From Candidatus Bathyarchaeota archaeon (lineage in GTDB: Archaea > Thermoproteota > Bathyarchaeia > Bathyarchaeales > Bathycorpusculaceae), in assembly GCA_963832745.1 (NCBI GenBank), contig CAWHVC010000001.1:352001-416000 (forward strand): a DNA stretch of 64,000 nt, in the 5' to 3' direction. The notes below the pieces were generated by a model. That model ran no database searches, was not told the origin of the DNA, and was given only the letters and a program-made list of their open reading frames with translations. The translations under genes and the position numbers were made by a program. Position 1 is the stretch's first letter; each line of letters opens with the position of its first letter. Below are positions 1 through 45,332 of the stretch, piece by piece.

Positions 1-1352
1 TGCTTCGAAGCGGCGGTCCAGCGATTGAAAGGGGCTTGTACGCGTTTGGCAAAACACGCAAAATAATCAGCAGAAATGTCGAGCGTAACTTGATGAGGAG
101 TACGATATGTTTTGCGTTAATTGGCATTTCGTTGAGTTTAGTAGTTGTTATGGGTGGAGCTCAAATAGGCACGGTTGCGGGCGTTGAAAACGTTATTCGC
201 TCATTTTCCAGTAGTGACTTGACGGTTATGACCGATAATGTTGTTAGCAAAGGTTTTGCACAAAACATTACAGCAATTGAAGGGGTTAATTCGACTACGC
301 CTGTGCTTGTAGTTCCGGACAGGACACTTCTTCAAAGTGACGCAGCTAATTCTCCGCTTAACTCTTCAACTACTGTTTTAGCTATTGACACTGTTTCTTA
401 TTCTTCTGTTATGTCAATGACTTTCAGTGATGACACGCCAGAAGATGTTTTCAGTCGGCTTAACGAAAAAAACACTATTATTTTGACTTCTCCACTTGCT
501 CAATCGTTGAATGCCACTGTAGGTGACACAGTGAAAGTACGCTACATTGCTTATGAGGATAAGGTTGTTAAAGTGGAGGTTCCAGCTGGAACAGTTTTGC
601 CTGCAGGAGTGCCGACGCCAGCACCAACTGAGTATCATGTCACTGTGCCCCTTTTGGAATGGAAAAACTGCACAGTTGTCGGGGTAGCACAGGGGGCATG
701 GCTGGATATTATGTCGTTTGGCAATTTTATGCTGTCTGAAGCCTCATACATTTCATACAATAACCTGAACTCGACTTTTCCAAACAGCAATAAAAACTAC
801 AATGACACCGCTAACCTGTTCTTCGTAAAAGTAAATCCAGACACAAACATTGACCAAGCCAAAAACAACCTCGTTAGCAACTATGGCGACCAATACAAAC
901 TCAGCATTACCACTTATAATGACGCAGTACAAAGAGTACGAAGCTCAATAGACGAAATCTTCTACATCCTTTACTCAATCGTAATTTTTGCAGTAGCAAA
1001 CGCTGGCATAGGTGTAGCAGCCATAATGATAATGAACGTGTCTGAACGCAAAAGGGAAATCGGCATTCTACGTTCCCAAGGCATGAGCAAATCTCAGGTT
1101 GTCACAAGCATCATAGGCGAAGCCACTTTCTTAGGTGTTGTTGGCTTTGCTATGGGCATAATTGTTGGTTTAATGTTTCACCGGGTAACCGTTAGTTACA
1201 TGCGGCTTGAAGGCTTCCCAATGGCGTTCATCATGCCGTATGATGCGATGGCAGTTATTCTTGTTTTAGCAATTGCAACCGCAGTAATAAGCGCCGTTTA
1301 CCCAGCTGATAAAGCTTCAAAGCTTGATATTGTCGATGCCATAAGACACTAA
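1..1352 (+). CDS. ABC transporter permease, FtsX/MacB-like (5' part probably outside window)
   Basis: C-terminal FtsX motif (NVSERKREIGILRSQG, SAVYPA..ASKLDIVDAIR) and a large extracytoplasmic loop. Confidence 0.9.
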   Translation, partial: LRSGGPAIERGLYAFGKTRKIISRNVERNLMRSTICFALIGISLSLVVVMGGAQIGTVAGVENVIRSFSSSDLTVMTDNVVSKGFAQNITAIEGVNSTTPVLVVPDRTLLQSDAANSPLNSSTTVLAIDTVSYSSVMSMTFSDDTPEDVFSRLNEKNTIILTSPLAQSLNATVGDTVKVRYIAYEDKVVKVEVPAGTVLPAGVPTPAPTEYHVTVPLLEWKNCTVVGVAQGAWLDIMSFGNFMLSEASYISYNNLNSTFPNSNKNYNDTANLFFVKVNPDTNIDQAKNNLVSNYGDQYKLSITTYNDAVQRVRSSIDEIFYILYSIVIFAVANAGIGVAAIMIMNVSERKREIGILRSQGMSKSQVVTSIIGEATFLGVVGFAMGIIVGLMFHRVTVSYMRLEGFPMAFIMPYDAMAVILVLAIATAVISAVYPADKASKLDIVDAIRH

Positions 1353-29672: not shown

Positions 29673-30408
29673 AACCTGCCACCTTCGCGAAGACTTCTTC
29701 GAGGTTTTCGCTGCCATACTTGGCTTTAAGTTCTTTTGGTTCGCCTTCAACAACGATTTTGCCTTTGTTAACAAAAGAGACGCGGTTGCAGAGGTATTCT
29801 ACTTCAAGCATGTTGTGGCTGCTTAAAATTACGGTGATTCCGTAATCTTTGACGTAACGCTTGATGATCTCTCGAACGTGGTAAGCGTGGAGAACGTCTA
29901 AGCCGCTTGCGGGTTCATCGAGCACTGCCAATTTGGGGTGGGTCATAAGGGCGCGGGCGATGAGGAGACGGCGTTTCATGCCTTTACTGTAGGTTTTGGC
30001 GCGGTCTTTTAGGCGGTCTCCGAGTCCGCTGAGTTCTGCGGCTTCGTTTACCATGGTTTTGAGGTCGCGGTCTGGGGTTTGATTGAATTTTGCCATGAAC
30101 TGGAGGTATTCAAGGCCAGTGAGGTTTGGGTAAGCGCCCGATTCTTCTGGCAGGTAACTGAGGATTTTTCGGACTTCAGCGGCTTTAGAAACGACGTCTA
30201 ACCCGAATATGTCAATTTTACCTGAAGTTGGCAAAATTAGGGTGCAGATGGTGCGTAGTGTGGTTGTTTTGCCGGCGCCGTTTGGGCCGATTAATCCGTA
30301 GACTTCGCCGGGTTTAACGGTGAAGCTTAATTCATCCAACGCGCGGACAGTGCCGAATTGTTTTACTAACGATTTAGCATCAACAGCAAGAGTCAAAGTA
30401 TGATACAC
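29665..30408 (-). CDS. ABC transporter ATP-binding protein, NatA-like
   Basis: GPNGAGKT, YSKGMKRR, LDEPASGLD, SSHNMLEVE. Confidence 0.93.
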   Translation of the reverse strand: MYHTLTLAVDAKSLVKQFGTVRALDELSFTVKPGEVYGLIGPNGAGKTTTLRTICTLILPTSGKIDIFGLDVVSKAAEVRKILSYLPEESGAYPNLTGLEYLQFMAKFNQTPDRDLKTMVNEAAELSGLGDRLKDRAKTYSKGMKRRLLIARALMTHPKLAVLDEPASGLDVLHAYHVREIIKRYVKDYGITVILSSHNMLEVEYLCNRVSFVNKGKIVVEGEPKELKAKYGSENLEEVFAKVAGYA

Positions 30409-30413
30409 GCTCT

Positions 30414-30428
30414 CCCGAAATATTCGGG
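30414..30428. promoter_or_regulatory. palindromic operator candidate CCCGAA-ATA-TTCGGG
   Basis: Perfect 6-bp inverted repeat between a minus-strand TATA-like box (~30438-30444) and the ABC ATPase start. Confidence 0.45.
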
Positions 30429-30644
30429 CAATATCGATATAAAGTTAATCAAGCGTAAACAGCGATTGAGCGCTTTTTGGGGTTTGGGTTTGCAAATTAC
30501 TTTTTCTTAAAAATTCACAGAGGGTGAAAAAGCATCAGTAGGATCTATATTCTCAGTGTTTTACAGTTTTTTTGGAGTTTTTTTGTGGTGTTGCTGAAAG
30601 GGTTTATTAAGGCAATAAGTGAATTACTGCGTTTGGTGTAAAAA

Positions 30645-30737
30645 ATGGTATATACACTTTTCATTGAAGAAGACGAAGAAAACTGCGACGACGACTGCGA
30701 TTGCGACTGCGAATGTGAAGACTGCGAGGACGAGTAA
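30645..30737 (+). CDS. 30-aa acidic Cys-rich peptide MVYTLFIEEDEENCDDDCDCDCECEDCEDE
   Basis: TATA-like TTTATTAA at 30603, GGTG upstream of ATG, TAA stop, T-rich terminator-like tract after. Confidence 0.65.
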   Translation: MVYTLFIEEDEENCDDDCDCDCECEDCEDE

Positions 30738-30796
30738 ACCCGCAAAAATGTGCGGTAACCCTTCCTTTTTTCCGTTTTTTAAATCTGACCCGTTTT

Positions 30797-31723
30797 TTAT
30801 TCTAAAAATTGCTCCAAATACTCTGTAACCAACACGTAGGCTTGAGCGTCTTCTGGGCCTATCCGAACCCCGCCTCGGTCAGTTTTGATTAAAACTTCAC
30901 CATCATTCTCGCCAACAGGCTCATTATACCTTATCCTGTAAACAAGCATAGTCACCTTATCATTTTGCACTTGAAAAGTCAACAAAGGAAACTTGACACC
31001 TGGAAAAAATACGTCAAACTTTTCCCCCGTACGCTTCTCAATCATAAAATCTTTGCGTTCCTCCAAACCCAACAAACTATCCAAAAGGCTACCCTTAAAC
31101 CTGGGAAAACCCGACTGCACTTCCAATTCAGCCTTCCTCTTAACCGCACCAATCAGTCCATCTAATGCCAAATCATCCCAAAGCTCCACCCCCACCTTTT
31201 CCGCCTCCACCTTTGCCTGCTCAGAAAAACCCGTAGTAACCAAAACTATCGCCGTATCACATTCATAGATACGTTTTGCCTGCAGAGCCATCAAAACAAT
31301 CGCATCCGAAACCACACAATTTTTGGGATATTTACGCGCTAAAACCGCTGTTTTGCCACCGCTTTTAGAGGCAATATAGTCTATGCCTTGAAAGGCTTGT
31401 ATTTTTTCGGGGTGAATGTCATAGCCTAATTCTTGCATAAGCCATTTTGTAAAGTTCTCAAACTCTTTACCAGATAAACTGTCAAGGGTGTAGACGGGTT
31501 CTTTTTGCTGCTTTAAGCCAGTTTGTCTTTCAGCGACAGTTCTTAAGATTTTATGCTCAATCATTTCCGTTTTTTGTAAATGTTCTTTTTCGATTCTGCT
31601 TGCAAGCACTTCTGCCTTGTCAAGAGGCAACCTGAGTTCATCTTGGAGAACCTCTATAATGTCAAGGTTTGGGTACCGATTGAAGATTTCTTGTAAAACT
31701 CCGTTAAACTTTACGTGACGCAT
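30797..31723 (-). CDS. Mrr-like restriction-endonuclease-fold protein with degenerate catalytic motif
   Basis: LSGKEFE...L..LGY, GIDYIA, AVLARKY (canonical AVQxKxY), VTTGFS..A...A....VELWD. Confidence 0.8.
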   Translation of the reverse strand: MRHVKFNGVLQEIFNRYPNLDIIEVLQDELRLPLDKAEVLASRIEKEHLQKTEMIEHKILRTVAERQTGLKQQKEPVYTLDSLSGKEFENFTKWLMQELGYDIHPEKIQAFQGIDYIASKSGGKTAVLARKYPKNCVVSDAIVLMALQAKRIYECDTAIVLVTTGFSEQAKVEAEKVGVELWDDLALDGLIGAVKRKAELEVQSGFPRFKGSLLDSLLGLEERKDFMIEKRTGEKFDVFFPGVKFPLLTFQVQNDKVTMLVYRIRYNEPVGENDGEVLIKTDRGGVRIGPEDAQAYVLVTEYLEQFLE

Positions 31724-31735
31724 ACCTTTTAGCTC

Positions 31736-33094
31736 CTATCGAGTGCTTTTTCCCGCATGTTTAGGACATAGCTGATGTTTAAACTCGTCAGTGTAAGACA
31801 AATTCGCTTTCGAGTAAATTTTTCCGCTACCGCACACATCACAAAAACCGTAATGCTGGATACATACGCTTGAATTGTCGTAACTGCATTTAAACTCAAG
31901 CAAGCGACTATGCCGTTTTCCGCAGACCGAACACACAAACCCTGAACCCTGCTCAATATACTCTTTTAAAGTATCATCAAAAGTTAAGACAGCTTTTTTG
32001 GAGTAGACCTTGCCTGTGTCAATGGATTGTTTGATGCAGTTTCCGCAAACATATTGGGTGTCTTGGGTGGCGTATCCTTCAGTGAAGCCTTTTTTGCATA
32101 CTGGGCACGTGACTTCTATAGTCTGGTTCAAACCCAAAATCAACGATGAACAAATAACCGCGTCGTTATCAAGAACTACATCAAACTTTACCTTGAACGT
32201 ATTAACCACTAGTAAATTGATAAATTTCACCGAAATGTTAGTAAGGTAAGATTCTTCCTCCCTTTTCAGAAGCGCCACGTAATTGTTCTGCCATTTCAAC
32301 GGGTCAAAATCATGTTTTCGCGAAAGAATTTGCTCCCGACGCTCCTGTTTAAACCGTTTCTCAAAAGCATGAATCTTGGCCTTCTTCTCTCTGCTAAGTG
32401 GTAAATCAAAAAGCATCACCTTTTCACGGAGAAGTACCTCCAGTTTTTCTTCAGCTACGCTTTTCAGTTGGTCAAAAAGCTCTGGTTTAACTTTGCCTTT
32501 ACCATCTGAAACCTTCAATGAGGTATCCTCCATGAAGATGCTCTCGCCCAAAATTGCAACCTCCAAAATGTTGGCTTTCTCATCAAGCAAAATGGTTATG
32601 ATTTCCTCGTTTTTCGGTCTTAACTTATTGTAGAAGATAACTGAATAATAGAACTGGAAGTACCTTACCTGTTCTTGCTTGCCAATTTTTATTTGGCTGA
32701 TTTTGCCGCAGTTAATTTGGTGATGGCATGGTTGGGGTTTGACGCAGATGCTGATTTCCTTTTGTTCAACAGTGACTTTATCGCAGTCAATGCAGGCAAA
32801 CGTGGCGTCTTTAAAGTGCTTTTTTACTTCTGTTTCCATATCCTCTTGGGGGTTTAACTGGATTTGACATGGTACCCCATTTTCTTGGCATTCACGCAGT
32901 ACCTGTTGGAAAGCTGGACTTCCCGGCGCAATAAGCGGCACCTTTTTCTCCCTTCCAACCGACGGGTGATACGTATATTCCTCCTCAGCTTTATCGGGGT
33001 AAGTTACATAGAGAATATCGTTTTTGAAAGCTATTTTACCCTCTTTAGCTTTTATGTAAGCTTCAAAGAAGCTTTCAATGTTTGTTTCGCTCAA
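31736..33094 (-). CDS. Cys-rich multi-zinc-finger protein, YqhG-like partner of SNF2 helicase
   Basis: CIDC, CPVC, CGNC, CSVC, CIQH, CDVC, CPKH motifs, central coiled region; start overlaps the helicase stop. Confidence 0.7.
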   Translation of the reverse strand: MSETNIESFFEAYIKAKEGKIAFKNDILYVTYPDKAEEEYTYHPSVGREKKVPLIAPGSPAFQQVLRECQENGVPCQIQLNPQEDMETEVKKHFKDATFACIDCDKVTVEQKEISICVKPQPCHHQINCGKISQIKIGKQEQVRYFQFYYSVIFYNKLRPKNEEIITILLDEKANILEVAILGESIFMEDTSLKVSDGKGKVKPELFDQLKSVAEEKLEVLLREKVMLFDLPLSREKKAKIHAFEKRFKQERREQILSRKHDFDPLKWQNNYVALLKREEESYLTNISVKFINLLVVNTFKVKFDVVLDNDAVICSSLILGLNQTIEVTCPVCKKGFTEGYATQDTQYVCGNCIKQSIDTGKVYSKKAVLTFDDTLKEYIEQGSGFVCSVCGKRHSRLLEFKCSYDNSSVCIQHYGFCDVCGSGKIYSKANLSYTDEFKHQLCPKHAGKSTR

Positions 33095-35055
33095 TCAATT
33101 ACCCCTTGAGTAAATTGTTCAGCCATTTCTTGACTTTCTCTTGAAGTGTTTAGATTGTTGGCAAGTTTTTCCAGTTCCTTTTGAATATCCAGACGTGAAT
33201 TGCTTCTCAGCAAAATTTCGGCGATGGTTTTTTGAATGTCTTGGTCGCCTTCTTTCAATTCAGCCAGAACTGTTTCCATCTTGCCAATAGTCATAGTAAA
33301 TAACTCGATTTTCTGGTACAAAATGTGCAAGACATAATCATCTATTGTGTCTTTAACCGCAAGGTTGAAGACGGTGACGTCACGGTCTTGTTTGAAGCGG
33401 TGAATTCTGCCGATGCGTTGCTCAATTTTCATGGGGTTCCAATGTAAGTCGTAATTAAACATAATAGCGCAGTTCTGCAGGTTAAGACCTTCAGCAGCCG
33501 CGTCAGTCGCAATCAAGTACCGTATTTCACCTTTCTTGAAGGCTTCAATAGTGGAGTCTCTCTCTATTTGGTTCATGTCACCCAAATAAACTTCTGCTCT
33601 GCCAAATTCTTGGTCAATCATTTCCTTAATTTTGTGAGCCGTTATTTTTCGCAGACAGAAAATCAGCGCCTGCTCTTTGGGGGTTTGGTTTAGGATGCTT
33701 CTTAATAGGTCCATTTTAGCGCTTTTTACTTTCTTTGCCATTTCGATAAGTTTGTCGGTGGCTTCAGTTTCCATGGGAAAACGTTGCTGCCGTTTTTTCA
33801 ACGATTCAATGGATGCTGCAGGTGAACTGGAGAACGACTGTTGAAGTGTTATTGCTTGGAAAACCAAGATTGCGTTACTTTGTGACGCGCTAATTTTCCG
33901 GTTGGGATTTTCAGCGATTAAGGTTTCAATGGTTTTAAACTTGTTTTGGCTAACTGCCCGAAGGTACTCGGTTGCTTGGTCAATAAATTCGCGTTCGTAA
34001 TCGTTAGCTTCAAGCGTTCTGGATTCAACAACCCTTTTAGTAAATGGAATACCCGTCTGTTCCCTGCGTGTACGGCACATTATGTCCCTAAGGGTTTGTT
34101 TTAAACCGGGAGCTTCTTCTTGCCTTAATACTCGACTTCTTGCATCCTCTGCAAAACGAGAAATAAACGCCCGTTCACTATCCAAAATTCCCGGTTGAAT
34201 TAAATCAACAATGCTGTAAAGGTCCGTCAACTTGTTGCATAACGGTGTTGCAGTAAGCATCAGGAAATGATTTTTACGCAGGTTTCCAAGGCTCGCACGT
34301 CCTTTACTATGTGTGTTTCTGAAGGCGTGTGCTTCATCTACAACTATTAGATCCCATGTTCGGCTTGCAAGCGCCTCAAACTTTCTTGGTAACAGGCTGT
34401 GAGAACAGATTATTTTGTCATCAGCCTTAAGATTCACACGTTCACCGGGATAGTTGGCTATGAAAAAGTTTTCTCCAAACTTTTCCGACATTTCGGCTTT
34501 CCATTGGGAAAGCAAGCTTTTAGGTGAAATAATTAGGATTGAATTAATTTCGCCCCTCAAAACCAGCTCTTTAATGATTAAGCCTGCTTCAATGGTTTTG
34601 CCAAGACCCACTTCATCAGCTAAAATCGCGTTAGCATTCATCTCATTAATTACTTGAAGCGCGGTTTGCATTTGGAAATTGTACGGCACCAGCTTGGTCC
34701 TGATGGCATCCAGAGCGATCAGGTGGTCAATTTTACCCGTATTTTTAATCTGTAACGCTTCAAGGTTAAGCTTGAATTTTTGGTACGTCGCATAATTATT
34801 TGCCGAAACAAGCTTTTTGATGTTATAAAGGTCAGAGTAAGTGCAGGTATAGCGGTGTTTGACCATTTTGCCTGCAGAGTTCTCCTCCTCAAAATCGCAA
34901 ATAACGGTTTTTTCTTCAGCTTTACCCTTTTCTGCAGCTGAGTTCTTCTTGGTTCTTCGTGTTTTTACCTGCGAGTTTTCGAGGTTAATTAAGTTTGGGC
35001 TGGTTATGGTTGTTTTTGTGACTAAAGAGTTGGAGTCTTTTAGGTTTTCAGACAA
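33091..35055 (-). CDS. SNF2-family (YqhH/RapA-like) SF2 helicase/ATPase
   Basis: LADEVGLGKT, DEAH, LTATP, TDAAAEGLNLQ, YDLHWNPMKIEQRIGRIHR. Confidence 0.95.
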   Translation of the reverse strand: MSENLKDSNSLVTKTTITSPNLINLENSQVKTRRTKKNSAAEKGKAEEKTVICDFEEENSAGKMVKHRYTCTYSDLYNIKKLVSANNYATYQKFKLNLEALQIKNTGKIDHLIALDAIRTKLVPYNFQMQTALQVINEMNANAILADEVGLGKTIEAGLIIKELVLRGEINSILIISPKSLLSQWKAEMSEKFGENFFIANYPGERVNLKADDKIICSHSLLPRKFEALASRTWDLIVVDEAHAFRNTHSKGRASLGNLRKNHFLMLTATPLCNKLTDLYSIVDLIQPGILDSERAFISRFAEDARSRVLRQEEAPGLKQTLRDIMCRTRREQTGIPFTKRVVESRTLEANDYEREFIDQATEYLRAVSQNKFKTIETLIAENPNRKISASQSNAILVFQAITLQQSFSSSPAASIESLKKRQQRFPMETEATDKLIEMAKKVKSAKMDLLRSILNQTPKEQALIFCLRKITAHKIKEMIDQEFGRAEVYLGDMNQIERDSTIEAFKKGEIRYLIATDAAAEGLNLQNCAIMFNYDLHWNPMKIEQRIGRIHRFKQDRDVTVFNLAVKDTIDDYVLHILYQKIELFTMTIGKMETVLAELKEGDQDIQKTIAEILLRSNSRLDIQKELEKLANNLNTSRESQEMAEQFTQGVID

Positions 35056-35300
35056 GCGTATCGCGGTTTCTACTTTATGTCAGGGTATAAAAACATAAAG
35101 TTTCAGAAAACCGGTTTTTCGCAAGATATACAACCAGATTAGGTCTTGATGGATCCATGATATCTCCTTAAAACACTAAAATTCGAGTTGAAAAATTAGT
35201 TTTCTTGCTCTTTGTGCAGTTTTTTATCCTTTTTCGATTTACCAGTTAAACTTAACTTTAACCGAAGATATGATTAAGCATCTAACCGGAGTTACATGTA

Positions 35301-35471
35301 GTGAAGAAGAAACGAGATAGCGTAGAAGTGACTGAAGCAGAAACTTTTGTGTCTTATAGTGAGAAGCTCAAACAGAAGTATGGTGACAACTGGCTGGGGA
35401 AGGGTAAGTGTACGGGGTTAGAGTTTAAACGTTGGTTAGCTTTACGCGATAATAAAACAGAAATTCCATAA
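35301..35471 (+). CDS. small hypothetical protein (56 aa, not in ORF track)
   Basis: GTG..TAA open frame MKKKRDSVEV...LKQKYGDNWLGKG...FKRWLALRD, GGAG upstream. Confidence 0.45.
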   Translation: MKKKRDSVEVTEAETFVSYSEKLKQKYGDNWLGKGKCTGLEFKRWLALRDNKTEIP

Positions 35472-35499
35472 AAAATGAGGGCTTTGTAAGTGTTCTTAA

Positions 35500-35870
35500 G
35501 TCTCAGTAATGTTTCCCCGCATTAATGTATATCTGGTTAGGATTTCTTCGGGTGTTCTCCCAAGCCCTTATACTTTCTTTTAGCAGGTCGATTCTGCTTA
35601 CCTATGCTTTTGCTCTGATGGCTAATCCTGCACTGTTGTAGAGCTCTCTTAGTGTTTCTATACCCACGATTTGCATGTCTTCGTAAATGTCGTTAGTATA
35701 ACCCATTAACATAATTGGTTATATCGCTGTTGACTTAGCAACACCCATTTTTGTTTAGAAGTATTTTCTTAAACTGTGGGTTCTAACACCGTACATCCAG
35801 CTGTCAAGAAATTTTTTGGCCGTACCAGCATTTACTGCATGTTCATAAACGATTTTTCTGACAGGTGAAT
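35500..35870 (-). pseudogene. tyrosine recombinase/integrase C-terminal pseudogene
   Basis: Translates VRKIV...MYGVRTHSLRKYF*TKM, then MGY...Y....IETLRELY; HxLR motif and catalytic-Tyr region, with stops and frameshifts. Confidence 0.8.
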
Positions 35871-35966
35871 AGGTTTACTTTAAAAAAATCAACCTCGTTT
35901 GGGCTATAGGCGTCTATCTTGGTTATATGAGTTGTGTCTTTTTGCTCCTATCACAATAATGCTGGG

Positions 35967-36037
35967 TAGCGACATAACTGTTGTAGATGCGCTAGCAAAA
36001 TGTATGAAAGCAATATTTTCGAAGTTGCTGGTGATTG
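35967..36037 (+). repeat. degenerate direct repeat of CLC-CBS gene 3' region (48724..48794)
   Basis: Manual alignment about 63/72 identical columns, same orientation. Confidence 0.85.
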
Positions 36038-36086
36038 TAATTACGCTGTCACACAGCCTTAAAGGTACGTTCTCATTGAACTCGCT

Positions 36087-37601
36087 ATGGTGGCGCCAAA
36101 TTTGGAATATAAGTGGATAGCCGCAACTGTAACAACAATCGGCATTTTCATGGTTGGACTAGACTCACGTATTGTGATTATAGGCTTACCGCAAGTTGCC
36201 TACCAGTTAGGTGCGAGCGCGGAGCAAGCCATTTGGATTACCCAGTCTTATGTTCTAACAACCACTGTTTTACTGTTATTGATTGGGCGGCTATCAGATA
36301 TTTTTGGCAGAGTTAGGATTTACTGGATGGGCTTTGCCATCTTCACAATTGGGTCAGCACTGACCAGTCTGGGTTTTAGTCCCCTTTCAGTAATAATATT
36401 TAGAGCAATTCAGGGAGCGGGTGGTGCTCTTATATTCGCCAATAGCATCGCCATAGTGACAGACTCTTCACCTCATCGTCAGTTGGGCTTTTTTGTTGGA
36501 ATAAACCAAATTTCATATCGTGCAGGCGCAATTTTGGGATTGACTTTAAGTGGGTTGATTTTGTCCTTTTTTGATTGGCGAGCTCTTTTTTATATCAATA
36601 TTCCTGTAGGGGTCTTCGGGACCTACTGGGCAAGAAAACGGCTCAAAGAAGTTGCGGTGTTAGATAAAAATTCAAAGATTGATTGGATCGGCTTTTCTGC
36701 GTTTACAGTATTTCTCCTATCTTTGATGATCGCTTTAACAATCAGCGCTTATTATTCTTTGGAGTCAGCGTCTGTTCTGGGTCTTTTCTTATTATCGGCG
36801 ATTTTTTTTGTGTTGTTTGCTTTGTGGGAGAGAAAGACTAGTGCCCCTTTGATTGATTTTAGAATATTTAAGATTAGAGAAGTTACAGGAGGGGTGATGG
36901 CTGTTCTGCTTAATGTTATTGCTTGGGCAGCAATGCTTCTACTGCTAAGCCTACAGTTTCAACTGGTCAATAATCAGACGCCCCTTGAGGCAGGGATTAG
37001 CATACTTCCATTCGAGATTGCATTCTTAGCCGTTGGGCCTCTAAGCGGAACTTTATCAGATAGGTTCGGGTACACTCGGTTTATATTAACGGGTTTGAGT
37101 TTAGGAAGCATTTCGCTTTTTCTCCTATCAACAACTGATGCCAACACGCCTTACTCAATATTAGCACTCTACATGGCTCTGATGGGAGTTGCCACTGGTT
37201 TGTTCCTAGCACCTAACTTGCGGTCTGTGATGGGCGCGCTTCCAATGCAGAGACGGGGAGTCGGTTCTGCCTTAGTTTCACTTTTTCTCAACATAGGATT
37301 AACAATTAGCCTCAACTTTGCAATAGTTATAATGTCATTAATTGCCCCTTATGACTTAATTACACGGATTGTTTCTGGCATCGGCTCGGTTTCAGTAACC
37401 GCAGCTCAACAAGCGCTTTTCATGGATAGTATCAAGTTCACTTACGCTATTATTGCAGTCGTTAATGCTTTGGCTATTATTCCCTCAGTTTTCCAAATCA
37501 ACAGGCAGCGCAAAAATAAAGTTTTGTCTTCTTCTAAACAACCGCCCATGGCAACAGTTGAGGCTATTGCGTTGGAACGCTCGTCATACTTACTTGAATA
37601 G
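36087..37601 (+). CDS. MFS transporter, DHA2/EmrB-QacA-like
   Basis: GRLSDIFGR, RAIQGAG, WRALFYINIPVG, GTLSDRFG; ~14 TM. Confidence 0.92.
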   Translation: MVAPNLEYKWIAATVTTIGIFMVGLDSRIVIIGLPQVAYQLGASAEQAIWITQSYVLTTTVLLLLIGRLSDIFGRVRIYWMGFAIFTIGSALTSLGFSPLSVIIFRAIQGAGGALIFANSIAIVTDSSPHRQLGFFVGINQISYRAGAILGLTLSGLILSFFDWRALFYINIPVGVFGTYWARKRLKEVAVLDKNSKIDWIGFSAFTVFLLSLMIALTISAYYSLESASVLGLFLLSAIFFVLFALWERKTSAPLIDFRIFKIREVTGGVMAVLLNVIAWAAMLLLLSLQFQLVNNQTPLEAGISILPFEIAFLAVGPLSGTLSDRFGYTRFILTGLSLGSISLFLLSTTDANTPYSILALYMALMGVATGLFLAPNLRSVMGALPMQRRGVGSALVSLFLNIGLTISLNFAIVIMSLIAPYDLITRIVSGIGSVSVTAAQQALFMDSIKFTYAIIAVVNALAIIPSVFQINRQRKNKVLSSSKQPPMATVEAIALERSSYLLE

Positions 37602-37909: not shown

Positions 37910-38818
37910 TTAATACATTCTCAGTTCGGGCACTTCCATTCCAGTTTCAGTTTTTCTGAAAAGTTTCCAAATATTCAATTGAATATTTTTTAAATCACTT
38001 AAGTCGTTTGCGAGGGCTTTTATTACGAGCCCGTGGTTATTTGCCATTTCTGTGGCTCCACCGTAGGTATTTTGAAAATCAATTTGTTTCTTGGCATTGA
38101 CAGCTTTTTCAGAATACCAATATGCTTTTAAATAATACTTGTTATTACCAAAAATAATGTCTAATATTTCTTTGTCCTGTTTAGTAAATTGAGTACTTTC
38201 GCTTAGAAGCAGTTGATTATTTTTCTCGATCATGACTTTTGAAGAGTATAACTCAAAATCCCAAAATTCTCCCCGTTCAACGCGTCCCGGGCAAAATATC
38301 TCACAGTAGAGAAGTCTAGACTCATCGCTAACATGGAACGTTGTTCTTTGATGCCATCGCGAATCAACAAACAGCATTGTCTCTCGGGGAAGATACTCTA
38401 ATCGACTATTTTTTCCAAGGAAAACATCCACCTGCTTGCTTGCGTAATTCAGATCCATTTTGTATACTTTTGTGGCCATCGTATCAGTGATGAATGCTTC
38501 AGCGCCTTCGTTTAATCTTATTTTGTAAGTGTACCTGTCGCCTTGTACAATTCCGCCTGTTGGGTTCATGAAGAGGATGTATGGTAAACCCGGTAGATAT
38601 GGGTCATAGTATAATTCTCTTAAAAGTTTTGCGGGAAGTACATTATACAGGTCTGTGAGGTATGTTTTGTCTTGATATTTGGTAAATGTTAATTCTGCAA
38701 TAGCTTCTTTACCTGGCGATCCAACTGCAAGTCTTGGCTTTTCAGCTTCATAAGTTAAGAAATTAGATGGTAAATCGCTTAAATCTTGAAGCACTTTTTG
38801 AAGCACGTCCAGTGTCAT
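37910..38818 (-). CDS. ureD: urease accessory protein UreD/UreH
   Basis: NPTGGIVQGD, ATKVYKM, LEYLP, PGR..RGE; position in ure operon. Confidence 0.92.
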   Translation of the reverse strand: MTLDVLQKVLQDLSDLPSNFLTYEAEKPRLAVGSPGKEAIAELTFTKYQDKTYLTDLYNVLPAKLLRELYYDPYLPGLPYILFMNPTGGIVQGDRYTYKIRLNEGAEAFITDTMATKVYKMDLNYASKQVDVFLGKNSRLEYLPRETMLFVDSRWHQRTTFHVSDESRLLYCEIFCPGRVERGEFWDFELYSSKVMIEKNNQLLLSESTQFTKQDKEILDIIFGNNKYYLKAYWYSEKAVNAKKQIDFQNTYGGATEMANNHGLVIKALANDLSDLKNIQLNIWKLFRKTETGMEVPELRMY

Positions 38819-39462
38819 TTGAAAAGTGCCTTTTCCCTTAGTATTTTAACGACTTCATCAAGGCCTGTGCCCTCTTTAAGGGAAAGTAACACTGTAGGAT
38901 TGCCATCTCTAATTCTTTCGGCATCTTCCCTCATTAGGTCAAGGTTGGCTGTTTTTACGCCTGATTCAAGAATCGTTGATTCAACATATGGGGCTAAATC
39001 TATTTTGTTTATAATAAGCATATCAGATTTTTTAATTCCTAAACCGCCTTTGCGTATTGTTTTATCTCCACCAGCGACATCAACCATGTAAATGAAATAG
39101 TCTGCAAGTTTTGGACTAAACGTGAGTGTTATGTTGTCTCCACCTGATTCTATAAGAATTGCATCTAAACCCGGATTTTCTTTCTCAAGCTTCTCAGCAG
39201 CATCTATGTTCATTGATGGGTCATCCCTTACGGCTGTGTGAGGGCAACCACCTGTTTCAATGCCTATGATTAGGTTTGGGTCAATGTTTTTTCCAAGTCT
39301 TGTAGCGAGCCTTCGGGCGTCCTCTCTGGAGTAAACATCATTTGATATTGCTCCAACCTTGAAGCCTTGATCGACAAATTTTGGAATTAGTTTTTCGATT
39401 AATTCTGTTTTTCCGCAGCCTATTGCGCCGCCTATTCCAATTCTAACTGTTCTACTACTCAT
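38815..39462 (-). CDS. ureG: urease accessory GTPase UreG
   Basis: GCGKT, ETGGCPH, ESGGDN, DVAGGDK, NKIDLAPYV. Confidence 0.97.
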   Translation of the reverse strand: MSSRTVRIGIGGAIGCGKTELIEKLIPKFVDQGFKVGAISNDVYSREDARRLATRLGKNIDPNLIIGIETGGCPHTAVRDDPSMNIDAAEKLEKENPGLDAILIESGGDNITLTFSPKLADYFIYMVDVAGGDKTIRKGGLGIKKSDMLIINKIDLAPYVESTILESGVKTANLDLMREDAERIRDGNPTVLLSLKEGTGLDEVVKILREKALFK

Positions 39463-39476
39463 AATTTTTGTCTCCT

Positions 39477-40154
39477 TTAACTCATGAACATTCTGCTGTT
39501 GCTTAATTCGTGCCTCATTGAGGCAATATCTACCAGTGGAAAAGTTTGATGTAAATCGGTTAACTTTAAAGGTTTAACCTCGATTGAAGAAAACGCGTTG
39601 CTTATGATTTTTTGGGCTTCTAAGTAATCGATTATGCCCATTCGTACCAAAGAAGCCGTGACTTCCATTAGATTTACGTATAGAAGAGATAAAGCGCCTG
39701 AATCTTTGAAACCAAATTGGTGAGAAACGAGCGCTAAAACCACGGGGTAGGTTCCATAAGATTGACCTGATTTGACAAGTTCTTTGAAGTCTTTTCCCAT
39801 TGAATCTTCGTTGAATTCAATTGCGTTTATCATGCCTCTTCCCATTTTAACGATGGCTGAACGGGTTTCTTCAGCAATTTTAGCGGAATAACATATTTCA
39901 TCAATTTTTTTCAGCAATTCGATGTCGCCTGTTTCAACAGCGTTTAATGCTTGAAAAAAAATTCCAACATCGAAAGATTGCCATACTTTTTCAACGTAGA
40001 TGTTAATTATTGTTGAAATCTTGTCTTTGGGTAACAGGTCTTCGTTTACTACTTGTTCTATACCTTGAGACATCATAAATGAACCCATAGGAAAAAAGGA
40101 GTCAGACAAACGAAGCAAGTTTAACAATTTTTCGTTTTCACTTAAACTATTCAT
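39477..40154 (-). CDS. ureF: urease accessory protein UreF
   Basis: LSDSFFPMGSF..SQGIE; C-terminal DIASMRHE....RMFMS. Confidence 0.93.
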   Translation of the reverse strand: MNSLSENEKLLNLLRLSDSFFPMGSFMMSQGIEQVVNEDLLPKDKISTIINIYVEKVWQSFDVGIFFQALNAVETGDIELLKKIDEICYSAKIAEETRSAIVKMGRGMINAIEFNEDSMGKDFKELVKSGQSYGTYPVVLALVSHQFGFKDSGALSLLYVNLMEVTASLVRMGIIDYLEAQKIISNAFSSIEVKPLKLTDLHQTFPLVDIASMRHELSNSRMFMS

Positions 40155-40620
40155 CCTCTTCCCCTCCATGGTATCCCGCTGCGGACATGGTGATTATTTT
40201 TTGGGTTGGCTCAAACTTGATTGGTAGCTTCATCGATTGAAGAATTTTCGTGATTTTTTCTTCGCCTAAGGTTACTGGAACGTAGACATCGTTGTTTTCA
40301 ATCAAAACTTCAAGGTGCCGATTACCTAGATTGTAGCCTAATTTTATTGCTTGCTCCAAAAGCGTTGTATCTGGCGCGTTTAAATTCACTTTTATTACAC
40401 GCTCAGGTTCAATCAAAATCTTGAAGTATTCACCTTTTTCAGAAGGACCAAAAATGTCACCTTGGAGTATTGTTTCGCCTCTGGGTAAATTAATGATTAA
40501 ATCTTCTCCATCGTTTAACTTTGTTCTTATTCGGCCTCTCATTGCATCTTGCCTATTAGTGGTCACTTCTTTAACATTATCAATGGATAATGAATTGGCT
40601 ATCTTTTCTGAAAAAATCAA
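40147..40620 (-). CDS. ureE: urease accessory nickel chaperone UreE
   Basis: LPRG..L.GD, GYNLGNRH; no His-rich tail. Confidence 0.9.
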   Translation of the reverse strand: MIFSEKIANSLSIDNVKEVTTNRQDAMRGRIRTKLNDGEDLIINLPRGETILQGDIFGPSEKGEYFKILIEPERVIKVNLNAPDTTLLEQAIKLGYNLGNRHLEVLIENNDVYVPVTLGEEKITKILQSMKLPIKFEPTQKIITMSAAGYHGGEEDE

Positions 40621-40638
40621 ACAAATTGCCTCTCTTAA

Positions 40639-40968
40639 CTAAACTTTCTTAAAAGCAGCATCTCTGAGTTGGTCAGCCCTTTCGGCCTCGTCAACCAAGC
40701 CTAAATGCCTATACCATAAAGGATTCACGTAAGCGGTCTTAAACCTTTCGTCCTCAACCAATATCTTGCCGCCGATAACTAAATCATCGGCAATATAGAC
40801 TTCTCTCATTAAATGTTTAGGAAAATCAAGATTAAGATGAGTTTGAGGGTCAACCCAACTTGAAATGTTTGAAAGTTTAAGAGCAGTAACATCCGCATGC
40901 TTAACCTTTGTAGGGTCAACTACCTCTCCATCTTCAATATTAGAAATAGAAGTATAATGTCTAATCAA
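40639..40968 (-). CDS. unknown 109-aa protein embedded between ureC and ureE
   Basis: TTG start with GGAG site, co-oriented, 18-nt gap to ureE. Confidence 0.75.
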   Translation of the reverse strand: MIRHYTSISNIEDGEVVDPTKVKHADVTALKLSNISSWVDPQTHLNLDFPKHLMREVYIADDLVIGGKILVEDERFKTAYVNPLWYRHLGLVDEAERADQLRDAAFKKV

Positions 40969-41006
40969 ATCTTATTTCTCCAAAAAAAGGATAGGGGAAA
41001 CTCAGT

Positions 41007-42731
41007 TTACACTAAATGGTAAAGCTGAGTTAGGGGTAATTCTTTTGCTGGTTCAGAAGTTATTGGCTTACCGTTGAATGAGACTTTGTATGTTTCTGGG
41101 TCAATCTTTATGTCGCCGAGGGTGCTGTTTCGTATCATGTGCTGTTTGCCGAGGTTTCTTACGTTGTGTACGGGCAAAACCATGCGATGGATTCCATATT
41201 TCTTTTCTATGCCGTTTTCGATTGCTAACTTCGATACGAAGAGGGCACAGGTTCTTGGTTGTGCTAATCCAAATCCGCCCCACATGGGTCGGAAGAAGAC
41301 TGGCTCGACAGGGGGCACTGACGCGTTGGGATCACCCATCATTGCATAGGCAATTAAGCCACCCTTGAAGACAATGTTTGGTTTTACTCCGAAGAATTGC
41401 GGGTTCCAAAGAACGATATCCGCCATTTTTCCTGGTGAAATACTGCCTACATAGTCGGATATTCCGTTGGTTATTGCAGGGTTAATGTTGAGTTTTGCGA
41501 GGTATCTTAAGACTCTAAAGTTGTCATTTTCAGCGGAGTCTTCGGGGAGTTTACCAAATTGGGCTTTCATTTTGTGGGCAGTTTGCCAGCATCTGGTTGA
41601 TACTTCACCTGTTCGCCCCATTGCTTGGCTGTCGGATGAATACATACTAAGAATGCCCATATCATGGAAGACATCTTCGGCTGCGATGGTTTCTGCTCTG
41701 ATTCTTGATTCGGCGAATGCAACGTCTTCAGGAACCTTGGGGTTGAGGTGGTGTGTAACCATGACCATGTCTAGGTGCTCGTCGATGGTGTTAACGGTGT
41801 AGGGTCGGGTGGGGTTTGTTGAGGATGGTAAGACATTAGGTTCTCCGGCGATTTTCATAATGTCTGGAGCGTGGCCTCCGCCAGCACCTTCAGTGTGATA
41901 AGTGTGGACTGTTCGGCCATCTATGGTGTCGATTGTGTCGTCTACATAGGCGCCCTCATTTAGCGAGTCGGTGTGGATTGCTAACTGGACATCATATTCG
42001 TCTGCGACAGTTAACGCTGTATCTATAGACGCAGCTGTTGCACCCCAGTCTTCGTGCATTTTGAATCCGCCTGCGCCAGCTGCTAATTCTTCGATCAGGG
42101 TTTCTTTTTTACTGTCGTTGGCTTTGCCTAAAACTATCCAGTTTAAGGGTAATCCTTCGAAAGACTCGATTAATTTTTGGATGTTCCAGGGGCCGGGTGT
42201 ACAGGTTGTGGCGTTTGTTCCATCTGCGGGACCTGTGCCTCCACCAACGTATGTTGTGATGCCGTTGGCGATTGCGTGGTAAACCTGTTGCGGCGAAATC
42301 CAATGGGTGTGGGTATCAAAGAATCCTGCGGTGGCAATGAGGCCCTCTCCGGCAGTGATTTCGGTCGCGTTACTAACAACCATATTTTCGGTGACGTTGT
42401 CCATGGTGCTTGGGTTTCCGGCTTTACCGATGCCTACGATTATCCCGTCTCGGATGCCAATGTCCGCTTTCACAACGCCCAATAAAGCGTCTAACACCAC
42501 AACGTTTGTTATGACATGGTCTAATGCACCGTCTGCATGTGTTGTGCCTGGCGATAGGCCCATGCCTTGGCGTCCTGTTTTCCCTCCACCGAAAACTAGC
42601 TCGTCACCATAGGTATTAAGATCTTTTTCTATTTCAATTGTCAGGTTTGTGTCAGCTAGCTGGATTTTGTCGCCTTTCGTGGGGCCATACAAGTCTAAAT
42701 ATTGCTTTCGTGGAATCTTCATTTTATTCAA
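41007..42731 (-). CDS. ureC: urease alpha subunit
   Basis: [42 protein letters not shown]. Confidence 0.99.
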
Positions 42732-43101
42732 CCACTACTCCTTTGAATTTTAGTTTCTTGGCTTTTCTTAGCGCCATCTCTTTTCGATAAATTGTCCTTA
42801 CACTGCCGTCTACGAGGTTGTTGAATCCGTGGATGTATTTTTTACCGCCATATTCAACAAGGGGCACTTCTTTTTCTTGGCCTGGTTCAAATCGTACACT
42901 TGTGCCTGCAGGCAGAGCGAGTTTCATTCCATAGGCTTTTTCTCTGTCAAAATCTAGTGCTCTGTTGGCTTCGAAGAAGTGAAAATGCGAACCTACTTGA
43001 ATGCCTCTATCGCCAGTGTTTTTCACTTTCAAGGTTATGGTTTTTCTATTTGGGAATGCCTCAATGTCGCCTGATCCCAAGGTAATTTGTCCGACGGTCA
43101 T
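42724..43101 (-). CDS. ureB: urease beta subunit
   Basis: [29 protein letters not shown]. Confidence 0.99.
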
Positions 43102-44165: not shown

Positions 44166-45308
44166 ATGGCGGTTTTTGTGGATCCGATTTCAGGAGCTAT
44201 TAATTTTATCCTTAACGGTGTCGGGCAAGTATTCTTTATGGGTTCGCCGTTAACTGGAATTATTTTCGTGATTGCGCTCGCTATAAACTCAAGAAGAGCC
44301 GCTGCTCTTGCGGTAATAGGCTCTATTTTGGGTGGGTTAGTAGGCTGGGGGCTAGGCATAGAGCTCATACCGGCTTCTTTGTCTTCTCCGGACAATTCAG
44401 TAATTTATGGAATTTTCGGGTTTAACTCTGTTCTAACCGCTATCGCATTGGGTGATACCTTCTTAGAGAAGGGAAAAGGAGCATGGGTCGCAGCCGCATT
44501 AGGCGCGGCAATTACAGGATTTGTCACTGCTTCTCTTATCTGGTTTACAGGCATATTTGGGATACCCGTGCAAACTTCAGCGTTTGTTTTAACCACATGG
44601 ATTATTCTATTTGCTGTTTATAAGATGGGCAACCTTAAACTTGCTGGTCCACCTCCTGTGCCAAAACAAAGAAGCTCAATGTTGAAGAATCCTCAAAATA
44701 TTGAAAAAAAAGAACCTTTACAGTTAGGGGAATTATCTGCAGGCGGTTTTGTAAAACTGATTTTTACAGGTGTAGCACAAGTAATGTTTCAGGAAAACTG
44801 GAAAACAGGGGTTGTTTTTTTTATAGGATTAACCGTTGCCAGTTTTTCTTTGGTTCCATATGGTTTTCCAGGGCAATATCCAATATATTTCGCTGGGGTA
44901 ACTGCTTTTATAGGGACTCTTTCCGCCACTTTAACAGCTATTGCCTTCAAAGCTGATAGACAATCAGTTTTAATCGGTCTTTACGGATTTAATGGTACCT
45001 TAACGTCGCTAGCAGTCATGGGTGTCTTCCTTGGATTTCTTTGGCCTATAAGCCCATTTAATGGTTCATGGGTTAATTTTTTTGTTATGCTCTTTGCTGC
45101 TGCATTTTCTTCTGTAGTTACAGCTTTTATTGGAACAATAACTAGCCGCTTTAAGTTGCCAACTTTGACTGCACCGTTTGTTTTCACAGCATGGCTAATA
45201 GAGTTAGGCGCGCATCTCTTTCCTAACATAGCACCCGCCAGTCTACTTTTACTAACACAGCCCACAGCCACGGGAATTCTCCAAATCGTCCCTTCCCTGA
45301 TAATATGA
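44166..45308 (+). CDS. urea transporter (UT/Utp family channel)
   Basis: Two homologous halves with GVGQVFF/GVAQVMF, GFN and TSAF/TAPF motifs. Confidence 0.92.
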   Translation: MAVFVDPISGAINFILNGVGQVFFMGSPLTGIIFVIALAINSRRAAALAVIGSILGGLVGWGLGIELIPASLSSPDNSVIYGIFGFNSVLTAIALGDTFLEKGKGAWVAAALGAAITGFVTASLIWFTGIFGIPVQTSAFVLTTWIILFAVYKMGNLKLAGPPPVPKQRSSMLKNPQNIEKKEPLQLGELSAGGFVKLIFTGVAQVMFQENWKTGVVFFIGLTVASFSLVPYGFPGQYPIYFAGVTAFIGTLSATLTAIAFKADRQSVLIGLYGFNGTLTSLAVMGVFLGFLWPISPFNGSWVNFFVMLFAAAFSSVVTAFIGTITSRFKLPTLTAPFVFTAWLIELGAHLFPNIAPASLLLLTQPTATGILQIVPSLII

Positions 45309-45332
45309 CTCGGAGAGATTGGAGTGTTATAG

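Follow-up and report, generated by a model that had tools for sequence, protein, structure and literature searches.

Introduction

RapA (also named HepA; PDB 6bog, 8so8, 8t0l, and 4s20) is a Swi2/Snf2 ATPase of Escherichia coli that recycles RNA polymerase, and polymerase recycling of this type is known from bacteria. Here we describe, in the genome of the archaeon Candidatus Bathyarchaeota archaeon, an operon of three genes that encode a Snf2-family ATPase, a zinc protein with a RapA-like module, and a protein of the Mrr endonuclease fold. The operon lies in a stretch of 64,000 nucleotides (nt), contig CAWHVC010000001.1 positions 352,001-416,000, which is called the window throughout and whose positions are used as coordinates unless stated otherwise. 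In two reports (10.1101/2024.09.28.614012, PMC8666675), RapA is treated as a bacterial factor, and its N-terminal domain (residues 1-109) is described as required to grip the zinc-binding domain of RNA polymerase and open the clamp.

Snf2-type motors also occur in several defense systems. In type I Zorya, ZorD shows a Snf2-then-Mrr-like order, and DrmD of DISARM, BrxHI of BREX, and DpdE of Dpd are single chains of 870-1100 amino acids (aa). In a further pair, yqhH-yqhG of Bacillus, a small partner gene comes after a short Snf2 gene; the pair has no settled function. For Hma, one report (PMC11232893) describes HmaA as a Snf2 helicase with a C-terminal PD-(D/E)xK nickase, the nickase being essential, and as a proven defense protein.

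A preliminary description of the window had proposed that three tightly packed minus-strand genes form a translocase, a zinc-finger adaptor, and a nuclease-fold module acting on foreign, modified, or damaged DNA, and had compared them with the yqhH-yqhG pair. Our analysis arrives at a different best-supported description, namely a RapA-like Snf2 translocase that is split over two genes, in which one subunit carries zinc ribbons and a further one has an Mrr fold with a degenerate catalytic motif; it is lineage-specific and inherited as a block. We put the probability that the operon encodes a lineage-specific machine for chromosomal remodeling or roadblock clearing, in which the Mrr fold does not cut, at roughly 0.45.

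Results and discussion

Organization of the operon and the Snf2 ATPase

All three genes are adjacent on the minus strand in the order Snf2 ATPase, zinc protein, and Mrr-fold protein. Gene 1 (33091..35055, TTG start) encodes the 654-aa Snf2-family ATPase, gene 2 (31736..33094, TTG start) the 452-aa zinc protein, and gene 3 (30797..31723, ATG start) the 308-aa Mrr-fold protein. The exact coordinates in the list of open reading frames (ORFs) bear out the tight packing, with a 4-nt overlap between genes 1 and 2 (33091-33094) and a 12-nt spacing between genes 2 and 3 (31724-31735).

Gene 1 is a member of the Snf2 family by its domains as well as its motifs. It matches Pfam SNF2-rel_dom (PF00176; 2.4e-34, 119.2 bits against a cut-off of 24.9) and Helicase_C (PF00271; 8.6e-27, 94 bits against 23.5), both above the gathering score, with envelopes at residues 139-380 and 447-554 that together delimit an ATPase core at residues 139-554 (33394..34641, minus strand). 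Motifs I, II, III, and VI are present, and the helicase motifs, all of which had been reported as intact, are invariant among 30 aligned orthologues (G150-L-G-K-T154, D240-E-A-H243, A269-T-P271, and Q546-R-I-G-R550 with H552 and R553). Genome profile scans found gene 1 as the only Snf2-type gene of the source genome.

Comparison with curated models places gene 1 near several characterized motors and inside none of their families. Positions 117-648 of the NCBIfam RapA profile (NF003426 / PRK04914) align with residues 85-611 at 164.4 bits (160.6 bits in the genome scan), under the cut-off of 576; the scores against DrmD (NF038318 / NF038317; DrmD_b 252.5 bits against 950, and 220.8 against 610), DpdE (196.2 against 500), and ZorD (NF041790; 72.8 against 1500) likewise stay under theirs. 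The best PADLOC matches are all defense helicases, comprising DrmD (9.2e-75), BrxHI (2.1e-63), HmaA (1.9e-58), DpdE, and ZorD. As no PADLOC or NCBIfam model names the three-gene set, the middle protein has no match in either collection, and the Snf2 ATPase lies far under every curated cut-off, the trio matches no named system, as the preliminary description had supposed.

The PADLOC matches speak for an alternative in which the operon is an antiviral or anti-plasmid defense system of the helicase-plus-nuclease kind (like HmaA, ZorD, DISARM, or type IV/ISP restriction); here the Snf2 motor would translocate on invading DNA, the zinc protein would sense or adapt, and the Mrr-fold protein would nick or cleave. 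We consider this a serious, if not a probable, contender. The wide margins by which gene 1 misses the cut-offs for DrmD, ZorD, and DpdE count against it, and the remaining evidence is taken up below with gene 3 and with the genomic surroundings.

A RapA-like module in the zinc protein

Gene 2 matched no family in Pfam, PADLOC, NCBIfam, or PHROGs, and its likeness to RapA emerged from structure prediction. Residues 204-282 of the AlphaFold2 model (mean predicted local distance difference test score, pLDDT, 83.7) form a long helical hairpin, in keeping with the coiled region noted earlier. With this model, E. coli RapA accounted for each of the four best PDB matches in Foldseek (E 3.2e-5 to 4.4e-5, probability 1.00), and the next match had an E value of 0.03. 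VIA-align against 48,161 representative chains, run without the Foldseek pre-filter, also ranked RapA first (Z 7.1); a second look gave Z 9.5 for RapA (8so8, 223 aligned residues, root-mean-square deviation [rmsd] 7.3), 9.4, 8.8, 8.5, and 7.1, as compared to 4.8 for the next unrelated chain, these being moderate Z values and a high rmsd for a multi-part domain with a long hairpin. All five RapA superpositions place model residues 1..302 on RapA 710..968, which is the whole RapA C-terminal domain. As modeled, residues 1-302 of gene 2 (32189..33094, minus strand) have the fold of the RapA C-terminal domain.

Zinc ligands are found both in this module and behind it. In an alignment of 33 sequences, C117, C123, C330, C333, C350, C353, C388, C391, C418, C421, and H446 are invariant, and C101, C104, H125, C403, C411, H414, and C443 are at least 90% conserved. 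These residues amount to about eight ligand pairs, in agreement with the earlier count of at least seven, and to about four zinc sites. One site lies within the RapA-like module (C101, C104, C117/C123, H125); the others form about three zinc ribbons (C330/C333/C350/C353; C388/C391/C403-C411/H414; C418/C421/C443/H446) in a tail at residues 320-452 (31739..32137, minus strand). The proposal of a zinc-finger adaptor thus holds for the ribbon tail, but the protein consists mainly of the RapA C-terminal-domain-like module.

The ribbon repeat (profile positions ~384-458) also recurs several times within open frames of ~1000 aa in other families of Thermoproteota, for example in 27 of 32 and 8 of 8 genomes of two such families. 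Both of the frames scanned with Pfam (L071:1934-5032 and L072:1894-4653, plus strand) carry HerA/DUF87 ATPase domains, which suggests a module that travels with DNA motors. The comparison of the operon with YqhH-YqhG yielded a weak lead only: gene 2 had no match to Pfam YqhG (PF11079) at E <= 0.1, and in its nearest Pfam-bearing language-model look-alike cluster 15% of the members carry PF11079, at a score of 0.78, under the trusted 0.9. An identity as a RING, B-box, or LIM-type zinc finger was considered and rejected, the PDB sequence-profile matches being weak (best E 5.7e-4) and taken as likeness in the CxxC pattern. A longer form of gene 2 (577-578 aa) occurs in five loci (L036, L039, L040, L055, and L057; proteins P0122 and P0125); it has an additional C-terminal Cys-rich stretch and a small beta-rich domain, which are also present in the distant homologues P0153 and P0160 and absent from the window form.

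Since gene 1 aligns with RapA profile positions 117-648 and gene 2 residues 1-302 superpose on RapA 710-968, the pair is colinear with RapA from ~117 to 968, the division falling between motor and C-terminal domain. Together they resemble a RapA-like enzyme that has been split in two and that lacks a matched RapA N-domain, and we place the trio with the prokaryotic Snf2 enzymes of the RapA/HepA clade. Unlike RapA, the trio distributes the motor and the C-terminal domain over two genes and not one polypeptide, adds zinc sites, a zinc-ribbon tail, and an Mrr-fold subunit, and has an archaeal host; in addition, the whole-protein score stays under the curated cut-off (164.4 versus 576 bits), and the profile comparison of gene 2 is not significant. 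A fused protein of the Snf2 ATPase and gene 2 was not found among proteins of 792-2260 aa, a negative result of little weight.

An Mrr fold with a degenerate active site

Gene 3 has the Mrr fold that had been ascribed to it. It matches Pfam Mrr_cat (PF04471) at residues 80-188 (1.1e-12, 48.5 bits against a cut-off of 21), and its AlphaFold2 model (pLDDT 82.6) superposes best on AF1548 (1y88; Z 12.2, rmsd 2.1, 109 aligned residues), followed by AspBHI (Z 11.1), MspJI (Z 9.8), NucS/EndoMS (Z 8.6-9.3), and Hjc resolvases (Z 5.8-6.1). With a Pfam match above the gathering score and a PD-(D/E)xK fold, gene 3 is an Mrr-type family member. An N-terminal helical region is followed by the restriction-endonuclease-like core (residues 84-195; 31139..31474, minus strand) and by a conserved C-terminal alpha/beta domain (residues 205-308; 30800..31111, minus strand) of unassigned fold, for which the fold matches were middling only (YjbR Z 6.3, frataxin-like Z 4.8-6.2). 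A PDB sequence search with gene 3 returned only a chance homeobox match (E 0.93).

The catalytic motif of Mrr and MspJI is D...(E/Q)xK. In the window protein the corresponding positions, as mapped on the orthologue alignment (in which the orthologue in L055 carries QAK) and not by residue-level structural superposition, are D115, L128, and R130, and the canonical motif is absent. Among 38 orthologues, position 115 holds D in 28 cases, E in 4, and other residues in 6; position 128 holds L in 18 cases, Q in 14, E in 2, and other residues in 4; and at position 130 there is R in 23 cases, K in 2, and a hydrophobic residue or T in 13. One of the 38 (L055) has the full canonical motif. Mean identity to the window protein is 48.3% in the endonuclease core, versus 59.8% in the N-terminal helices and 61.1% in the C-terminal domain. 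As neither the window protein nor 37 of the 38 orthologues have the canonical motif, a nuclease effector is doubtful, and, judged from the sequences, the Mrr fold here is probably not a nuclease. Of the nuclease-fold module that had been proposed, the fold stands but the catalytic motif is non-canonical.

Gene 3 also matches Pfam NA-iREase1, an inactive endonuclease-fold family (1.3e-6), and its core resembles, at the level of the fold only, the N-domain of eukaryotic Rpb5 (Z 6-7, model 81..188 on chain 6..136). NA-iREase1 and the Rpb5 N-domain are precedents for a dead endonuclease fold that serves as a binding module. A descent of gene 3 from Rpb5/RpoH was considered and dropped, as the likeness covers the Rpb5 N-domain only and leaves the RpoH-like domain unmatched.

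Comparison with individual defense systems brings out both likeness and difference. As in Hma, a Snf2 motor is combined with a PD-(D/E)xK-fold module, and the proven Snf2-PD-(D/E)xK nickase fusion of that system (PMC11232893) favors a defense role; gene 1 matches the PADLOC HmaA model (1.9e-58), through residues 89-440 only. Unlike in Hma, the nuclease fold is encoded by a gene of its own and has a degenerate motif, gene 3 has no HmaA match, and neither an HmaB methylase nor an HmaC ATPase was found among the flanking ORFs. The Snf2-then-Mrr-like order recalls type I ZorD, and genes 1 and 3 match consecutive parts of the PADLOC ZorD model PDLC00631 (positions 341-888 and, in its C-terminal part at 7.6e-8, 915-1060), but the ZorD score of 72.8 bits contrasts with a cut-off of 1500, the RapA-C-terminal-domain-like zinc protein stands between the two genes, and no ZorA-, ZorB-, or ZorC-like genes were found among the flanking ORFs scanned. 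While the ATPase core has its highest sequence scores with DrmD, BrxHI, and DpdE, those are long single chains, the trio scores under their curated cut-offs, and the flanking ORFs include no partner genes of DISARM (DrmA, DrmB, DrmC, or the methylase), BREX, or Dpd. A defense nuclease could have a non-canonical site made up of E87, which is invariant, D115, which is kept in most orthologues, and a basic residue at 130 or 131; against this stand the single orthologue with a canonical (E/Q)xK and the Leu that the window protein has at the E/Q position.

The fold matches of gene 3 also bear on another alternative, in which the operon encodes a DNA-damage or replication-fork remodeler that is recruited to lesions or stalled forks and whose Mrr fold recognizes branched or damaged DNA. 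Eukaryotic Snf2 enzymes with zinc fingers and a nuclease or nuclease-like module, such as ZRANB3 and Rad5/HLTF, offer parallels. The Mrr-fold core resembles archaeal NucS/EndoMS (Z 9.3 and 8.6) and the Hjc resolvases, the first zinc ribbon has weak RING-like profile matches (best E 5.7e-4), UvrC lies directly downstream of the trio in two loci (L026 and L028), with a UvrA-like ATP-binding cassette (ABC) ATPase beside it in L028, and a report on Bacillus thuringiensis links yqhH to resistance to ultraviolet light (PMC10054049). As these fold matches are generic for PD-(D/E)xK proteins, the RING-like matches are borderline and may reflect CxxC spacing alone, UvrC adjacency is limited to 2 of 42 loci, and no repair-specific domain was found, we regard a dedicated repair role as quite unlikely.

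Conservation of the trio as a unit

A pattern scan (one genome per species) retrieved 41 loci, which with the window make a set of 42. ORF clustering found the Snf2 gene in all 42, the zinc protein gene in 41, and the Mrr-fold gene in 38, with no change of order in any locus, so that the co-conservation left open by the preliminary description is now established; moreover, the trio seems to have been lost together in two near-complete genomes of the same genus (G038 and G187). All three genes are single intact ORFs in 30 of the 42 loci, and the 4-nt overlap between genes 1 and 2 is kept in 30 of the 31 loci in which both are intact. Across the 30 intact loci (435 pairs), the pairwise identities of the three proteins correlate with r 0.85-0.94, which, the loci being kin, shows block inheritance and is not an independent statistical test. 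Ratios of non-synonymous to synonymous substitution (dN/dS) against the nearest relatives were 0.03-0.05 for the Snf2 ATPase, ~0.06 for gene 2, and 0.04-0.23 for gene 3, all rough values owing to saturated dS. The trio co-occurs, co-diverges, and is under purifying selection. Fusions of genes 2 and 3 were seen in two proteins, P0082, which is a close relative of 784 aa, and the distant P0154, which has 675 aa and is 22% identical.

Phyletic distribution and an older pair

The distribution of gene 2 is narrow. A large protein collection holds 214 homologues, every named source of which is Bathyarchaeia or Bathyarchaeota, and an all-against-all HMMER comparison of 1.84 billion representatives yielded 40 representatives only. 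Of 201 Bathyarchaeia genomes, 10 yielded full-length gene 2, every one from the genus of the window (9 of 11 sampled relatives and the source genome itself), and it was found in none of the other 86 genera of that sample; in a phylum-wide sample of 401 genomes it was again confined to this genus (8 of 10 sampled relatives and the source genome). In one of the nine gene 2-bearing relatives (G193) the gene is pseudogenized: at G193:C6:654544-657722 (L021) the Snf2 gene and gene 2 are broken by several stops and frame changes, and gene 3 aligns over 305 residues unbroken. Nearly all of the 41 scanned loci are Bathyarchaeia by title, several being Ca. Bathycorpusculum. Two trio loci come from bins titled Methanocella (L054) and Aminicenantes (L061, heavily degraded) and represent mis-binned contigs or transfers.

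Outside the genus, the closest Snf2 proteins (36-37% identical) are found in three genomes of two other Bathyarchaeia families (f20 and f21), where each Snf2 gene is directly followed by a gene for a 378-417-aa protein. The two partner proteins compared are remote homologues of gene 2 by hhalign, the first with a probability of 95.8% (E 6.6e-9, 338 columns, zinc ribbon included) and the second with 84% (E 7.7e-6, N-terminal part only). This sister family is small (12 proteins), and no Mrr gene follows the Snf2 gene and its partner in the f20/f21 loci. The occurrence of the pair without Mrr in other families indicates that the pair is the core, to which the Mrr-fold protein was added in the genus of the window and in the P0154 lineage.

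Genomic surroundings

The 27 flanking ORFs of the window, as scanned with Pfam, include a urease operon, transporters, an ABC transporter, and a Kelch protein; no methyltransferase, in line with the preliminary description, and no other defense gene was found among them. Elsewhere the neighbors of the trio are mostly housekeeping genes common to sub-clades (creatininase, TFIIB, pyruvate kinase, thermosome, UvrC, and glycosyltransferases). The 143 ORFs within two genes of the trio fall into 96 families, of which 10 match PADLOC at 1e-8, most of them through generic ATPase or helicase similarity, and defense-like neighbors are few, namely AbiEii in L033, an MkoA-like helicase in four loci, and a pVip-like gene in L056. 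The helicase that adjoins the trio in 4 of 42 loci (L035:9308-13669, minus strand, L038, L046, and L058) is a Upf1-like protein of 1205-1453 aa (AAA_11/AAA_12; PADLOC MkoA-like 2.9e-47).

Gene 1 is 87-90% identical to its closest relatives, similar to the adjacent ABC permease (86-87%). The region at 20.6-30.45 kb of the window is syntenic with the closest relatives and synteny ends exactly at the trio; in those relatives the trio lies 50-240 kb from the syntenic block. In an "empty-site" comparison, the flanks of the relatives' trio mapped to scattered places in the source genome or were absent, which indicates a synteny breakpoint and not a clean insertion.

A tyrosine-integrase remnant had been reported upstream of the operon. 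A whole-genome scan with PF00589 gave 12 matches, none of them at this site, and four fragments gave no Pfam integrase match. By tblastx, ~35563-35874 on the minus strand (roughly 510-820 nt upstream of where the Snf2 gene starts) resembles C1:686011-686336 (E 1.8e-8) and C5:125641-125847 (E 4.9e-10), which are themselves weak PF00589 matches (E 1.1e-4 and 0.057, respectively). What stands of the reported remnant is thus a likeness to weak integrase-like paralogues, and 35563..35874 is possibly, on this sequence similarity, a fragment of one.

The possible integrase-like fragment, the breakpoint, and the split genes in 12 of 42 loci would be compatible with an operon that now does nothing for its host and is carried along as selfish or decaying cargo of an old mobile element. 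Given that dN/dS is well below 1 in all three genes, that the helicase motifs are invariant in 30 orthologues, that 30 of 42 loci are intact, and that many split cases stem from one large series of metagenome-assembled genomes (MAGs) or lie at contig ends, where assembly error is possible, this explanation is very improbable.

The same fragment and breakpoint, together with the few defense-like neighbors and with a module that is dispensable and sometimes decayed, would also suit a defense system. Set against these are the small and mostly generic share of PADLOC matches among the neighbor families (10 of 96), the lack of a methyltransferase and of ZorAB, DrmABC, and HmaBC partners among the flanking ORFs scanned, a distribution over one genus with sub-clade synteny and not patchy across taxa, and a Snf2 gene as conserved as the neighboring transporter. 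The phyletic pattern, with one genus, mostly vertical inheritance, and housekeeping neighbors, is unlike that of a typical mobile defense island. Of the suggestion that the module acts on foreign, modified, or damaged DNA, the co-conserved trio is confirmed, but this pattern fits the defense part of it poorly.

Proposed function

We propose that the operon encodes a three-subunit RapA-like Swi2/Snf2 translocase on double-stranded DNA that is inherited with the chromosome in one genus of Bathyarchaeia. The motor and C-terminal-domain polypeptides are translationally coupled, the three proteins may form one complex, and gene 2 is predicted to dock on the ATPase in the manner of the RapA C-terminal domain. 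The zinc ribbons, like the inactive endonuclease fold, could act as targeting modules that bind DNA or protein, and ATP-driven translocation would displace protein-DNA complexes, or remodel them, on the chromosome of the cell itself, possible targets being stalled or post-termination RNA polymerase, replication-transcription conflicts, and repair intermediates. Cutting of foreign DNA would not be the conserved activity; RapA's job likewise needs no nuclease activity. A bolder version, in which the operon is an archaeal counterpart of RapA, split in two, for which one genus recruited an inactivated endonuclease fold as a DNA sensor, and which clears RNA polymerase or other roadblocks from archaeal chromatin, seems to us unlikely in that full form. 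If it held, archaea would have their first known factor for RapA-type recycling in transcription or at roadblocks, and gene 3 would show how a restriction enzyme can be domesticated to become a subunit that does not cut.

A number of observations weigh against a chromosomal remodeling machine. The sequence scores of the ATPase core favor defense helicases (DrmD_b 252.5 bits, HmaA 1.9e-58, BrxH 2.1e-63) over RapA (164.4 bits), and the link of gene 2 to RapA is one of fold only, as an hhalign comparison of the gene 2 profile with E. coli RapA did not reach significance (probability 0.14%, E 0.42). No RapA N-domain was matched, since the RapA profile match begins at 117 and residues 1-56 of gene 1 are not conserved among orthologues; given that the RapA mechanism needs this domain, a RapA-like action on RNA polymerase stands here as an inference from the fold. 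A looser D/E...(E/Q)x(K/R) motif is kept in 7 of 38 gene 3 orthologues, which might still cut. If the operon served transcription or repair in general, one would look for it in more than one genus, and the module is dispensable, being pseudogenized in G193 and unfound in 2 of 11 sampled relatives of the genus, G038 (100% complete) and G187 (98% complete), in which both gene 2 (E <= 0.001) and the Snf2 ATPase (E <= 1e-10) were unmatched. Furthermore, 12 of the 42 loci are imperfect through split ORFs or contig-end truncations, although with many of the split cases coming from the one MAG series, assembly frameshifts are indistinguishable from real decay. Finally, the operon of the window sits at a synteny breakpoint next to the possible integrase-like fragment.

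A limited, word-based literature search found no publication on a RapA-like module of archaea or on these three genes as a set. Should genes 1 and 2 really rebuild a RapA-like enzyme, they would provide a testable candidate for an archaeal roadblock-clearing motor; a family with no assigned function (the 214 homologues and 40 representatives of gene 2, with the sister family of 12) would gain its first structural annotation, and a combination of Snf2 and Mrr should be read as a defense nuclease only with caution and after a check of the catalytic residues. If the operon is a defense system instead, it would be specific to Bathyarchaeia, with an effector that is not an ordinary Mrr nuclease.

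Other features of the window

Tandem repeats within 30300-36200 were limited to three short, low-score rows. A 72-nt stretch at 35967-36037, upstream of the gene for a major facilitator superfamily (MFS) transporter, has an 87.5% identical copy ~12.7 kb away at ~48724-48794 (C1:400724-400794), near the end of a CLC channel gene. The urease cluster looks complete (UreD, UreG, UreF, and the alpha and beta subunits), occupies 37910-43101 and 44166-46655, and stands beside urea/ammonium transporter genes. The MFS transporter that adjoins the urease region has matches that are only 24-37% identical in four close relatives.

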